Source: a virus. From it: 31,623 bases of DNA. This document shows, one piece after another, positions 24,323 through 30,857 of the stretch (positions within the stretch are counted from its first letter, which is position 1; every line of letters starts with the position of its first letter). The stretch lies in UHGV virus genome UHGV-0098804; one strand, 5' to 3'. Position numbers and translations under genes: made by a program. The notes beneath the pieces are model-generated. The model ran no database searches, was not told where the DNA came from, and saw nothing but the letters and a program-made list of their open reading frames with translations.

Positions 24323-24625
24323 ATGACCAAAAAAATTAACATAAAGGATTTCAGGGATGCGTGGCTTGATGATTTTTTTGAATTTTCAACACCACATAGA
24401 AAGATACCTCCTGATATTCATATGACATTGTCACGGAAGTTGGACATTATCAATGCCGCAACTACCTGTAAGGATTTAAGATCACCACCAGGTAATCGGT
24501 ATGAGGAACTGTCAGGGAAGCTAAATGGCTATTCATCAGTAAGGGTGAATAAGCAATATAGGTTAATTTTTAAGTGGGTTAACGGAAAGGCCGAGGACTT
24601 GTATCTCGACCCTCACAAATACTAA
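24323..24625 (+). CDS. higB: HigB-like toxin (RelE/ParE superfamily, plasmid-killer type)
   Basis: C-terminal LRSPPGNRYEELSGKLNGYSSVRVNKQYRLIFKW...DLYLDPHKY matches the recalled HigB toxin pattern (PPGNRLE...SIRIN.QWRICF...DYH); toxin-first gene order; GGAGG at 24305. Confidence 0.75.
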   Translation: MTKKINIKDFRDAWLDDFFEFSTPHRKIPPDIHMTLSRKLDIINAATTCKDLRSPPGNRYEELSGKLNGYSSVRVNKQYRLIFKWVNGKAEDLYLDPHKY

Positions 24626-24695
24626 AACAGATACCCGGTTACGGACCGGGTTCTGACCAGAGTCCACTTAATACGCACGCTAGTAAGGGCAAAAA

Positions 24696-25034
24696 ATGAA
24701 ACAGGCAACCAGAAAACCGACGACCGTAGGTGATATCCTTCTGTACGAATACCTGGAGCCGTTAGAGCTGAAGATCAACGAGTTAGCAGAAATACTTCAT
24801 GTTCATCGTAACACCGTAAGTGCTCTTGTTAATAATAATCGTAAGCTAACGATGGATATGGCATATCGCCTGGCAAAAGCATTCGATACTTCTGTAGATT
24901 TTTGGATTAATCTTCAGACCGCAGTAGATCTGTGGGAAGTCGAAAATGATATGCGCGTTCAGGAAGAGTTAAGTCGTATCAATACTGCTGAAAAATTTAT
25001 TTCTCAGCGGAACCTGAATAAAAAAGCAGCCTGA
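24696..25034 (+). CDS. higA: HigA-like antitoxin (XRE-type HTH)
   Basis: HTH region LAEILHVHRNTVSALVNNNRKLTMDMAYRLAKAFDTSVDFWINLQTAVDLW matches the HigA antidote pattern; immediately downstream of higB. Confidence 0.8.
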   Translation: MKQATRKPTTVGDILLYEYLEPLELKINELAEILHVHRNTVSALVNNNRKLTMDMAYRLAKAFDTSVDFWINLQTAVDLWEVENDMRVQEELSRINTAEKFISQRNLNKKAA

Positions 25035-27682: not shown

Positions 27683-27976
27683 TTATGCGTGGAAAAATAA
27701 TGGACGGATGTTTGGGCGAGTGGTTTGCGAAGCAACCCAAAGCTCATACTGGGATTGCATACCGGTCCACATTTCGGCACTGGTTCCAAGAGCGGACTCC
27801 AGACGAAGTGCCATATCAGCAGATATACCTGCTTTTTCATTCAGAATTCGGGAAAGCGCCGTGCGAGTAATGCCTAATGCCGCAGCGGCGTCTGTGACTG
27901 ACATGTCTCCCAAATATTCACGAAGAACCGCGCCTGGATGCGCGGGATTATGCATACGACTCATAGTGTTCCTCAA
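27683..27976 (-). CDS. higA: HigA-like antitoxin (second copy, XRE HTH)
   Basis: [18 protein letters not shown]...[38 protein letters not shown] is the canonical HigA pattern; 4-bp overlap with the upstream toxin gene. Confidence 0.8.
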
Positions 27977-28254
27977 TGATAATCCTGATAGTCAACTAGA
28001 ATTGCGTCTTCTCCTTCAAATCGGAAGGTAAGTCGCCAGTTACCGTTTACCGATATTGCCCAGTGACCTTTAAGGTCCGCCCCCTTTAGAGGGTGCAATT
28101 CCCATCCAGGCGCAGACATATCGTCCGGGCGTTTAGCTGTATTAAGCGCAGTCAATTGAATGCGTAGCTTAACCGCATGTTTGGCCTGAATGCCTGCGGT
28201 TGAACCTGTCTTGAAAAAGCGTTCAAGCCCTTTATGGCGAAATGACTTAATCAA
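27973..28254 (-). CDS. higB: HigB/RelE-like toxin (second copy); probable TTG start giving [14 protein letters not shown]...
   Basis: [13 protein letters not shown]...[43 protein letters not shown] matches the HigB/RelE toxin pattern. Track ATG at 28317 adds 21 atypical residues; a TTG at 28254 with GGA upstream restores the conserved N-terminus. Start uncertain. Confidence 0.7.
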
Positions 28255-28590
28255 AATAATTCCATTCGTGCGTGCAACCTGTGTATATACGCTACACGCA
28301 GAAAGAGTAAAATGCAAGCACTATCCGTATAGACAGAGTTTTTTCGCCACCCTGGAATTTATTGACTGTCAACAAGTGACTTTCATTAATCTTAAGGCGT
28401 GGACCAGCTCGATAGTGAGCTGGGTGTTATTTACCGATCGAATGGATTCGAAAAGATGAATATTTTTAATAAGCTGATTGATTTATTGAATAAATTCATT
28501 AGTGCTTCTTTAACTCAGCAGGTATCCACGTCAGTGTTTTTGTTACTCTTCTACCTGGTATTGAGGGAGTTAACAAAGCTACTAATGTGA

Positions 28591-29244
28591 TCAAAGTATC
28601 ACGGTATCTTCATCAACTTCTTTCCCAGCCAGTGACTTTGGCTGGGAGGTGCCTGCTTTAACTTTTTCATGCCCAATAATGGACAGGAACGAAGCGAGTA
28701 TGCCTGTTTTTTGCTCTTTCTCGACTGTGCCGGTCATCTGCTCTACGTAATCTGCACTGGCAACGTTGTGGTATACGGTCGCGTAGCAACACAGGATCAT
28801 CAGAATATGCTCCGGCCTGATATCCTGCCAGTTCACCCTGTAGACTTCTTCTCCGTTACCGTTGTATTCGGTATCAACGATAGAGTCGGGGATTTCGAAA
28901 GCACCTTTGTTATTTTGCGGCAGGGATAATAGCTTCTGGAGTTTTAACTCTCTGTATCTTTCCATCCCGACGATGATTGCTGCTCTGCCATCGGCATGAC
29001 GGGTCTTGAGAGTCACCTGGCTTGCTCCGGTGCCAGCGGAGATCGTTGGCGTAATTTCGTCTACCAGTACCTTAAATTTGCTTTTCCGCAGGGCTGCTAT
29101 AGCTGGAGGAATTTTTTGCTTTTGCTCCAATGCTGACGCGGGAAGGGGTTTTACTTCGTTAATAATGAGAGCACCGTCTTTCAGTATTGCAGTGAGCATT
29201 TGAGGCTTGCTGGTGGTCAGGCTGAATATTGCGATCTTTTCCAT
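28591..29244 (-). CDS. Hypothetical protein (about 217 aa)
   Basis: Track ORF 28591..29286; GGAGGAAGG lies before the ATG at 29244 (MEKIAIF...), and the 14 codons upstream of it are read through terminator hairpin sequence. Confidence 0.5.
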   Translation of the reverse strand: MEKIAIFSLTTSKPQMLTAILKDGALIINEVKPLPASALEQKQKIPPAIAALRKSKFKVLVDEITPTISAGTGASQVTLKTRHADGRAAIIVGMERYRELKLQKLLSLPQNNKGAFEIPDSIVDTEYNGNGEEVYRVNWQDIRPEHILMILCCYATVYHNVASADYVEQMTGTVEKEQKTGILASFLSIIGHEKVKAGTSQPKSLAGKEVDEDTVIL

Positions 29245-29270: not shown

Positions 29271-29296
29271 CAAAAAAAGGCCGCACATGGCGGCCT
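29271..29296 (-). terminator. Intrinsic-terminator-like hairpin oriented for minus-strand transcripts, 5' of orf 28591..29244
   Basis: On the minus strand aggccgc catgt gcggcct is followed by TTTTTTT; no minus-strand gene is immediately upstream, so the role (insulator or relic) is unclear. Confidence 0.45.
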
Positions 29297-29512
29297 GCTT
29301 TGGCGTTATGACTCCCTACCGCGCTTCGGCTGAAAGTTAATCGTCAAAAGAACCTTCAACGGGAGCCGTTAGCGCGATGGATTATGTGCAGTTTGTGATT
29401 TCCAAAATAGTGTCAACCACTTTTTGTGGATTTTATTTTTTGACCGAAATTTGGCCTAAATCATGTTGATGTAGTTGATTGTTTTTGTAACATAAAACTT
29501 CATTTTGTTTAC

Positions 29513-30136
29513 ATGAAGGACGGTGTAGTGAAGTTAAGGGTTTTAGGGACCGCGCTCGCGGCTATGTTGGGATGCGTATCTGTTAATACAGCCAATGCAA
29601 CTGCGTTACCTGCACAATTCAGGGCAGGGCAGCAGGTTATGAATAACGCTGGTGGGGATCATTCACAAGCGGCAATTATGGACTTTTGCAAGAGAGAGGG
29701 CATTCCATTACGGCCTGTTGGAACTCAGTTTATTGGTAAAACTGACTTTTGCGTTTTTGCATATACAGCATATCTGACGGACAAAGCTATAACAAAAACA
29801 GGTTATTCAACCAAAGATACTCTTTCCAGATTAAGTCAGGGATGGCAGCAATTCGAAGTGTATCGCCAGCAAGGATTAGGTGAGTTATTACAACCACTTT
29901 TTATGCTTGCGCTGGTGCCCGAGGGGCAGCAATTTTTGGTTAAAAAGGGAATGCTTCGCCAAAGTGATATTGCCGGGTTCGATAGCATGATGGCTTATGA
30001 GCGCAAACTAACCGAGCAGCGAAATAAAAAACCATCTGCTTCATGTGTGCAAAGTAAAACAGCAGAATACAGTGCAGTAGCCGGGCCTTTAGCCAAACAA
30101 ATGGCAGAGCAATGGTGTAAAAAATACGGGCAATAA
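29513..30136 (+). CDS. Predicted exported protein (207 aa) with N-terminal signal peptide
   Basis: Track ORF; hydrophobic N-terminus LRVLGTALAAMLGCVSVNTANA with an AxA-like cleavage site; AT-rich promoter-like region upstream. Confidence 0.55.
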   Translation: MKDGVVKLRVLGTALAAMLGCVSVNTANATALPAQFRAGQQVMNNAGGDHSQAAIMDFCKREGIPLRPVGTQFIGKTDFCVFAYTAYLTDKAITKTGYSTKDTLSRLSQGWQQFEVYRQQGLGELLQPLFMLALVPEGQQFLVKKGMLRQSDIAGFDSMMAYERKLTEQRNKKPSASCVQSKTAEYSAVAGPLAKQMAEQWCKKYGQ

Positions 30137-30156
30137 GTTACGCAGCGGAGGCAGAA

Positions 30157-30549
30157 TTGAAAAGATTGGCTATTGCTTTACTGGCGTCTTTCCCTTTGAT
30201 CGCGAGCGCCGGAAATTTACAAGTTAAGTGCGGTCGGTTTGATATAAAAATCTATCCGGATGCCATATTTCTGAATGGGAATAAGGTTGATAACGCACAC
30301 CGAAAAACTGAATCTGACGTAATGAGCTATGTGTTCCAGGAGTATGCGGAGATGGGGGGAACTTACACGCTGTACTCGCTGGATGTTCCTTCTCGCGGTG
30401 ATATGACATTATCCCATCAATGGCAGAACGCCGATGGCGAAGCTCTGCGCGAGGTTAAAACAGAAAAATGTGGCACTTTCCATTCTTTTAAAGGGAAAGC
30501 GCCAAATGTTAAATCTGTGCTTGAAAAACAGCGCGCAGGTGAGCTTTAA
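30157..30549 (+). CDS. Predicted small exported protein (130 aa) with signal peptide
   Basis: MKRLAIALLASFPLIASA signal peptide; GGAGG SD at about 30146; 20 bp downstream of the previous gene. Confidence 0.6.
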   Translation: MKRLAIALLASFPLIASAGNLQVKCGRFDIKIYPDAIFLNGNKVDNAHRKTESDVMSYVFQEYAEMGGTYTLYSLDVPSRGDMTLSHQWQNADGEALREVKTEKCGTFHSFKGKAPNVKSVLEKQRAGEL

Positions 30550-30857
30550 ACACCTTTAACCACGGAGATGCCGTTCCCTGCACGATAGCGGCGGGGAACG
30601 GAATTCTCCATCAGGTCACGAATTACTCCCGCCTCATGTAGTTCCTCTGTTTCCCAGTATCTGTTTGTCACCAGATCGAGGCTGGCTATGACCTTGTGCC
30701 GATCATTAGGCATAGCCAATTTTTCTGCTATAACCATCAGTGAAAACTCTTCATCCAGTAGGATTTGATACCAGACTTTTGACAGTTCCAACTCTCTAAT
30801 GAGGGTGAAGCGCCGCTCAAGTGTGGCGGCAGAATAAGTGAAATCTATTTTTTTCAT
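30546..30857 (-). CDS. Hypothetical protein (103 aa)
   Basis: Track ORF; preceded on the minus strand by a GC-rich hairpin at about 30889-30908. Confidence 0.45.
   Translation of the reverse strand: MKKIDFTYSAATLERRFTLIRELELSKVWYQILLDEEFSLMVIAEKLAMPNDRHKVIASLDLVTNRYWETEELHEAGVIRDLMENSVPRRYRAGNGISVVKGV

Follow-up and report, generated by a model that had tools for sequence, protein, structure and literature searches.

Two predicted exported proteins in the sim-type slot of D6-like phage-plasmids: a possible superinfection-exclusion module

Superimmunity of phage P1 has been known since 1982. SimC, a processed periplasmic protein, is the only Sim protein with a demonstrated role in exclusion, the part played by SimB being given as 'putative accessory'. 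Phage T4 encodes Spackle, a small helical periplasmic inhibitor of tail lysozyme. The gene cited for exclusion by P1 is simC (PMC2409434), and PMC8546580, with reference to Devlin 1982 and Kliem & Dreiseikelmann 1989, regards Sim as stopping injection and so denying superinfecting DNA access to the cytoplasm. P1 does not need simABC for lytic growth (PMC10695390), and these genes form one of eight hypervariable regions in P1-like phage-plasmids (PMC9603915). Plasmid pSL26_91 departs from its relatives at simB, which is replaced by uncharacterized hypothetical proteins, and in the injected transglycosylase gene sit (PMC6799933).

We analyzed a 31,623-nt stretch of virus genome UHGV-0098804 (the window), in which the original prediction had pointed to two adjacent genes as candidate moron or superinfection-exclusion cargo. 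Based on the annotation of phage D6 and of matching plasmids, the window represents a D6-like phage-plasmid of the P1 family. The 1.4 kb queried around the two genes (29300-30700) are 100% identical to E. coli plasmid NZ_CP032875 (p1_000837, 92.5 kb) and 97-99.9% identical to dozens of ~90-kb non-mobilisable plasmids from E. coli, Shigella and Salmonella. In PLSDB, 131 records matched the slot query. Among phage records D6 was the sole match, confined to the first 265 nt of the query. The module lies on plasmids in 75 of its 82 places in complete E. coli genomes and is essentially restricted to phage-plasmids and plasmids.

As predicted, two neighboring plus-strand genes (29513/29528..30136 and 30157..30549, here ORF1 and ORF2) are present amid minus-strand phage genes (Table 1). 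Around the slot, the genes are arranged as tail/baseplate genes, HigBA, mat, the ORF1-ORF2 slot, pmgF-like, Rha/ant antirepressor, icd and ref, so that the pair neighbors an immI-like (icd-ant) region, and in P1 simCBA adjoins c4-icd-ant. The gap between ORF1 and ORF2 is 20 nt, which argues for one operon, and the stop codon of ORF2 overlaps that of the convergent pmgF-like gene by 4 nt. To the left of mat, two separate HigB/RelE-HigA toxin-antitoxin pairs (24323-25034, plus strand; 27683-28317, minus strand) lie less than 4 kb apart and flank two tail/baseplate genes; the second has a TnpB gene in its place in CP043746 and is missing from D6. Far from the slot, NZ_CP032875 also carries a second pair of icd-like and Rha-type antirepressor genes (79262-80193, L116), which adjoins a lytic replication gene.

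Table 1. Features of the slot region in the window, and slot types found in D6-like backbones (aa, amino acids; ::, domains fused in one polypeptide).
Feature	Position	Strand	Remarks
mat-like gene (maturation control; phrog_1837)	28591..29244	-	Left slot boundary; divergent from ORF1
Candidate sigma-70 promoter of the operon	29466..29493	+	TTGATG (29466-29471), 16-nt spacer, TAACAT (29488-29493); weak, 8/12
ORF1 Shine-Dalgarno AAGGA	29516-29520	+	7 nt 5' of GTG 29528
ORF1	29528..30136	+	202-aa predicted exported protein; PHROG 12786 (function unknown)
ORF1 signal peptide	29528-29599	+	Predicted cleavage after ANA; mature protein 178 aa
ORF2 Shine-Dalgarno GGAGG	30147-30151	+	5 nt 5' of TTG 30157
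ORF2	30157..30549	+	130-aa predicted exported protein, TTG start; PHROG 13864 (function unknown)
ORF2 signal peptide	30157-30210	+	Predicted cleavage after ASA; mature protein 112 aa
pmgF-like gene (phrog_7349; PGAP 'transcriptional regulator')	30546..30857	-	Right slot boundary here
Rha/ant-type antirepressor gene	from 30917	-	Then icd; immI-like region
Slot type A: ORF1 / ORF2			Window, many E. coli/Shigella/Salmonella plasmids, E. fergusonii; includes pSL26_91 (L005)
Slot type B: ORF1 allele / SimB::X			L006, L064, L066, L067
Slot type C: SimB::X, in frame behind first 12-17 codons of an ORF1-type gene			D6, many others
Slot type D: different N-domain fused to X			L012

In case of ORF1, the start had been placed at ATG 29513, which is probably 15 nt too early. 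GTG 29528 is most likely the true start codon, since it aligns with the start codon of all relatives and is preceded by a Shine-Dalgarno sequence. In an alignment of nine upstream regions its position is the common start, with an ATG there in the distant loci L016 and L023, and ATG 29513 is missing in L008 and L015. Public annotations are at odds over the starts and shorten both proteins: PGAP puts the ORF1 start of NZ_CP032875 (36785-37282) at an internal Met, giving 165 aa without signal peptide, and the annotation of CP043746 (26546-26773) cuts ORF2 to 75 aa.

Signal peptides, with n-, h- and c-regions in both proteins, were predicted with our own heuristic. The predicted signal peptides and mature starts are MKLRVLGTALAAMLGCVSVNTANA|TALP for ORF1 and MKRLAIALLASFPLIASA|GNLQ for ORF2, each with two K/R in the n-region, an h-region of Kyte-Doolittle ~2.4-2.6 and an AXA site. 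The mature parts contain no second hydrophobic segment, and the signal-peptide layout is kept across all ORF1 and ORF2 homologues though the residues differ. The N-terminal signal peptides anticipated for both proteins are thus borne out by the heuristic as Sec-type, and ORF1 and ORF2 are both predicted to be Sec-exported. The conserved Cys number four in mature ORF1 and two in mature ORF2, even counts as would be expected for periplasmic disulfides. Pairwise dN/dS is ~0.1 for either gene, which indicates purifying selection and thus two genuine, selected genes.

Homology and structure searches, which had been proposed as a check, returned PHROG families without function and a small set of relatives but no known family or fold. 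No family was found for either protein in Pfam, NCBIfam or PADLOC, their PHROGs carry no function, HMM comparison with PDB sequences gave no match, and tblastn of both against 50,697 phage records was likewise negative. Word-indexed searching in 5.8 billion proteins brought up about ten clusters for either protein, all from Enterobacteriaceae. With a profile of the ORF1 family, HMMER was run exhaustively over 1.84 billion representatives and detected 22 matches only (E <=1e-3). The AlphaFold model of ORF1 is confident and all-alpha except for residues 1-21, which are of low confidence (pLDDT <50). It had no match in a BFVD fold search, and ORF1, as modeled, appears to be a structural orphan whose fold is without relative. 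Mature ORF2 is predicted to form eight beta strands and a C-terminal helix, residues 1-19 of its model having pLDDT <50. Neither protein showed the fold or family signature of periplasmic lysozyme/transglycosylase inhibitors (Ivy, PliC/MliC/PhiA, T4 Spackle). A lysozyme/SLT-like reading of ORF1, based on a conserved Glu and 'LLQP', was rejected, as the motifs do not come in the right order and the fold search yielded no lysozyme.

The promoter-like character attributed to the upstream DNA holds in part. The 110 nt upstream of ORF1 are AT-rich (GC ~0.375-0.39 in 200-nt windows of 29300-29599), but the consensus promoter scan gave no site of at least 9/12, leaving the weak candidate of Table 1, whose TTGnnn and TAACAT blocks are preserved in D6, L006, L007, L008 and L015. 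Neither a P1-type C1 operator near the operon nor a P1 late-promoter motif upstream of ORF1 was found, the upstream region contains no useful inverted or direct repeats, and no convincing terminator follows ORF2. Elsewhere in the window, in the AT-rich DNA that separates higB from the 3' end of mat, there is a P1 late-promoter pattern with one mismatch (CAAGTGACTTTCATTAATCT, 28373-28392, plus strand); matches to this pattern in the window are not more numerous than expected by chance. The gap between mat and ORF1 further contains a non-coding block of ~110-130 nt (29278-29410) that is conserved even in the distant loci L016 and L023, where the remainder of the intergenic region is not alignable. 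On the minus strand this block ends in a strong intrinsic terminator (29296..29278 plus T-run) just 5' of the mat ribosome-binding site, and a perfect TTGACA is found on the same strand at about 29412-29417. The block matched no Rfam family and has no similarity to P1 c4 RNA; it may encode a small RNA or serve as a mat leader that contains a terminator.

We compared the slot in 13 D6-like loci, anchored on conserved upstream DNA, and classified all fetched loci with per-domain local HMMs. D6-like backbones carry at least four slot types (Table 1), and every slot occupant has a predicted signal peptide. D6 and the window are near-identical across the intergenic region and roughly as far as codon 12 of ORF1, and divergent afterwards. 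Behind the same promoter region, D6 encodes a homologue of P1 SimB (D6_79), which consists of a SimB domain (52% identity to P1 SimB over 86 aa) and an X domain of ~160 aa. Type B has given rise to type C by deletion. In the annotated D6_79 gene (L001, 6228-7124), the initial ~12 codons are a remnant of an ORF1-type signal peptide, joined in frame by deletion. The annotated start of D6_79 is probably wrong and the true start an inner Met (MFFIKNGKRF), where its PHROG match sets in and a proper signal peptide starts. In E. coli RL465 plasmid II (L012, 4227-5102), a predicted exported protein of 291 aa has the X domain of D6_79 as its C-terminal half (HMM E=2e-82). Here X is joined to an unrelated N-terminal domain, which marks it as a separate, shuffled module. 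Searches with D6_79, the L012 protein, SimB and SimC against Pfam, NCBIfam, PADLOC and PHROGs yielded no function.

The flanks of the slot are far better conserved than ORF1. Window and the type B locus L006 are mostly 92-100% identical over ~2 kb on the left side of the slot, and likewise on its right side beginning at about 30940, whereas DNA identity within mature ORF1 is 54-67%. In L007 the ORF1 core is 55-70% identical and ORF2 95% identical. Diverged ORF1 genes in near-identical backbones indicate an old, recombining allelic series, and such divergence between conserved flanks is the pattern that would be expected of a specificity or arms-race locus. An exploratory comparison of slot type with sit showed no obvious co-variation. 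The sit gene is itself very mosaic, and plasmids of types A, B and C are about equally far from the window allele, so that the sit comparison lends no support here. The sit-like transglycosylase/tape-measure gene of NZ_CP032875 (L117, 5982-10418; 1478 aa) is internally repetitive, a single record matching it at up to 20 places, and strongly mosaic in D6-like plasmids, only 30 of 111 records covering at least 80% of it.

ORF1 and ORF2 also occur fused to each other and beside SimB. In P0024 (277 aa) and P0026 (281 aa), one predicted exported polypeptide comprises an ORF1-like domain and, C-terminal of it, an ORF2-like domain, and L023 and L103 likewise encode both domains in one predicted exported polypeptide. 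P0024 sits in the same slot between mat and icd of a more distant D6-like element; L023 and a similar ORF1::ORF2 fusion in Enterobacter plasmid pJBIWA008_2 occupy this slot, too. In L018, a predicted exported SimB homologue of 106 aa, 34% identical to P1 SimB and retaining all invariant positions, is followed after a 2-nt gap by an ORF1::ORF2 fusion gene. Two more cases came from scans of IMG/VR and metagenomes with profiles of SimB and ORF2, namely L104, with SimB followed by ORF1::ORF2, and L068, a three-gene operon of ORF1, SimB and ORF2. L068 and L104 share a RepB-iteron backbone and downstream genes and differ in order and fusion state of the three domains. SimB linkage thus comes in four arrangements, namely SimB before ORF1::ORF2 (L018, L104), ORF1 before SimB before ORF2 (L068), ORF1 before SimB::X (the four type B loci) and the ORF1 remnant in frame with SimB::X of D6. 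This fusion, fission and permutation of ORF1, ORF2 and SimB is strong comparative evidence that the three domains work together. ORF1 and ORF2 are functionally linked to each other, as their natural fusions show, and genomically linked to SimB. The operon partnership with SimB, present in L018, L104, L068 and the type B relatives, is absent from the element studied here: SimA, SimB, SimC and X domains were found nowhere in NZ_CP032875, and ORF1 and ORF2 must therefore act without SimB in this element.

Compared with P1 simABC, which we found in the order simA, simB, simC in about 30 loci, the pair shares the coding of small Sec-exported proteins (by prediction for ORF1 and ORF2) in an operon beside immI (c4-icd-ant) at a hypervariable locus, and its relatives share operons with SimB homologues. 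The succession of simB and simC (264 aa) in P1 is mirrored, in order and size, by SimB and the ~280-aa ORF1::ORF2 fusion of L018 and L104. However, ORF1 and ORF2 have no detectable homology to SimA, SimB or SimC, the element itself has no SimB, and ORF1-ORF2 converges on the 3' ends of ant-icd, whereas P1 sim is divergent from c4-icd-ant. BLASTP of ORF1 and ORF2 against SimC gave nothing better than E=3, and in hhalign the ORF1/fusion profile reached a probability of 0.1 with the SimC alignment; SimC is nearly an orphan, and with only 4 clusters in 5.8 billion proteins the power of this profile comparison is low. Gene 79 of phage D6 ('putative superimmunity accessory function protein') sits in the identical slot behind the same upstream DNA, but the mature proteins are unrelated, SimB::X in D6 and ORF1 plus ORF2 in the window. 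T4 Spackle (Sp) and Imm, small envelope proteins of a resident phage that stop DNA entry after adsorption, serve as a working analogy only.

The moron label of the original prediction fits to a degree. As with the lambdoid morons bor and lom, the genes are oriented opposite to their neighbors, their products are exported (here by prediction), they are present or replaced among close relatives, and the GC content of the slot cassette (0.40-0.48) is below that of the flanks (about 0.47-0.51). In contrast to morons, there is no clear private promoter/terminator pair, and the cassette is exchanged 3' of a conserved promoter region, even inside the signal-peptide codons. An exchange point at this position indicates an allelic slot rather than insertion.

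Shared slot, shared partners and export signals make sim-type exclusion the most likely reading, and we give about even chances to ORF1 and ORF2 being a SimB-less, SimC-less variant of a sim-type periplasmic superinfection-exclusion module. The predicted cargo that excludes superinfecting phage is partly supported: the sim slot, the SimB-linked relatives and the swapping of the slot are favorable, but SimC homology and a SimB gene in this element are lacking and the promoter is weak. The functional side of this reading is based on association only; from it we infer a physical complex, lysogenic expression, and both phenotype and target of exclusion. In such a scheme, the resident plasmid-prophage would express ORF1 and ORF2, both would be exported by Sec and cut by signal peptidase I and would acquire disulfide bonds once in the periplasm, and they would act jointly, probably as a periplasmic complex. 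They may then block an incoming related phage at a step after its adsorption but before its DNA has arrived in the cytoplasm, as described for P1 Sim, by interfering with the tail-tip or DNA-translocation step, and the diverged ORF1 core would set specificity. A more far-reaching version, which we put forward tentatively and consider rather doubtful, is that the sim locus of P1/D6-type phage-plasmids and some related plasmids is no single gene family but a kit in which at least five exported domains without mutual relationship (ORF1, ORF2, SimB, X, SimC) are combined, being shuffled, fused and split behind conserved regulatory DNA, with ORF1 and ORF2 as a hitherto unrecognised exclusion effector whose highly diverged alleles decide which incoming phages are excluded.

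A different target of the same exported proteins is an unlikely though serious alternative. ORF1 and ORF2 may be periplasmic lysogenic-conversion or defence cargo directed at unrelated phages, at bacteriocins or at muramidase/amidase toxins (as an immunity-like pair), or may change the envelope, rather than exclude phages of their own type. Two small, exported proteins with predicted disulfides and no known fold would suit such a function, and so would the solitary relatives. Genes for distant ORF1-like, predicted exported proteins stand alone beside Rep3-type replication genes in L021 (4928-5533) and L022 (3139-3735), contigs with no phage genes within the stretch fetched, one of them about 1.4 kb upstream of a gene for a 1562-aa autotransporter. 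ORF2-like genes are solitary in phage-plasmids of Citrobacter, Leclercia and Enterobacter, and in L026 about 300 nt upstream of an Hcp gene. These solitary genes indicate that the domains need not always serve phage exclusion. The lack of any PADLOC, Pfam or NCBIfam match speaks against defence cargo, however, and the recurrent linkage to SimB together with the sim slot beside immI points to phage-phage interaction.

The pair may instead, with a low probability in our estimation, have an accessory role in the element's own life cycle, silent in the lysogen, such as in infection, lysis timing, virion release or a plasmid-maintenance envelope function. The operon is divergent from mat, with which it shares a very conserved intergenic region, the module lies directly beside the plasmid replicon in L018, L068 and L104, and neither a repressor operator nor a constitutive consensus promoter was found, all of which would suit such a role. 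No P1-type late promoter motif precedes the operon, however, and the slot content is dispensable and replaceable in near-identical backbones, with ORF1 lost from D6, which would be unusual for a core lytic function; simABC, too, is non-essential for lytic growth of P1 (PMC10695390). Most improbable is exclusion by an outer-membrane lipoprotein of the T5 Llp or phi80/N15 Cor type, by which the receptor would be masked and adsorption blocked. The basis for this is a Cys within the ORF1 signal peptide (..AAMLGC..). This residue is a Gly in P0003, P0004 and P0008 and lacking in P0007; since it is not conserved, ORF1 does not appear to be a lipoprotein. Further, the preceding M-L-G makes a poor lipobox, the ORF2 signal peptide has no Cys, and the conserved cleavage motif is AXA followed by conserved (A)LP. 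Sim-type periplasmic exclusion remains our preferred reading.

Variability of the sim region (PMC9603915) and replacement of simB by hypothetical genes (PMC6799933) had already been noted; we found no prior description of the two protein families, their mutual fusion, their operon linkage to SimB or the orphan fold of ORF1. The analysis assigns two uncharacterised families of predicted exported proteins, which swap places with SimB- and SimC-type proteins, to the sim module, and thereby to a region that is among the most variable parts of P1-like phage-plasmids. They provide alternative effectors for comparison and a natural set of alleles for specificity mapping. In E. coli and Salmonella of clinical and farm origin, such phage-plasmids are common, some with resistance genes, and given this spread and this gene content, the control of phage-plasmid co-infection is of practical interest.
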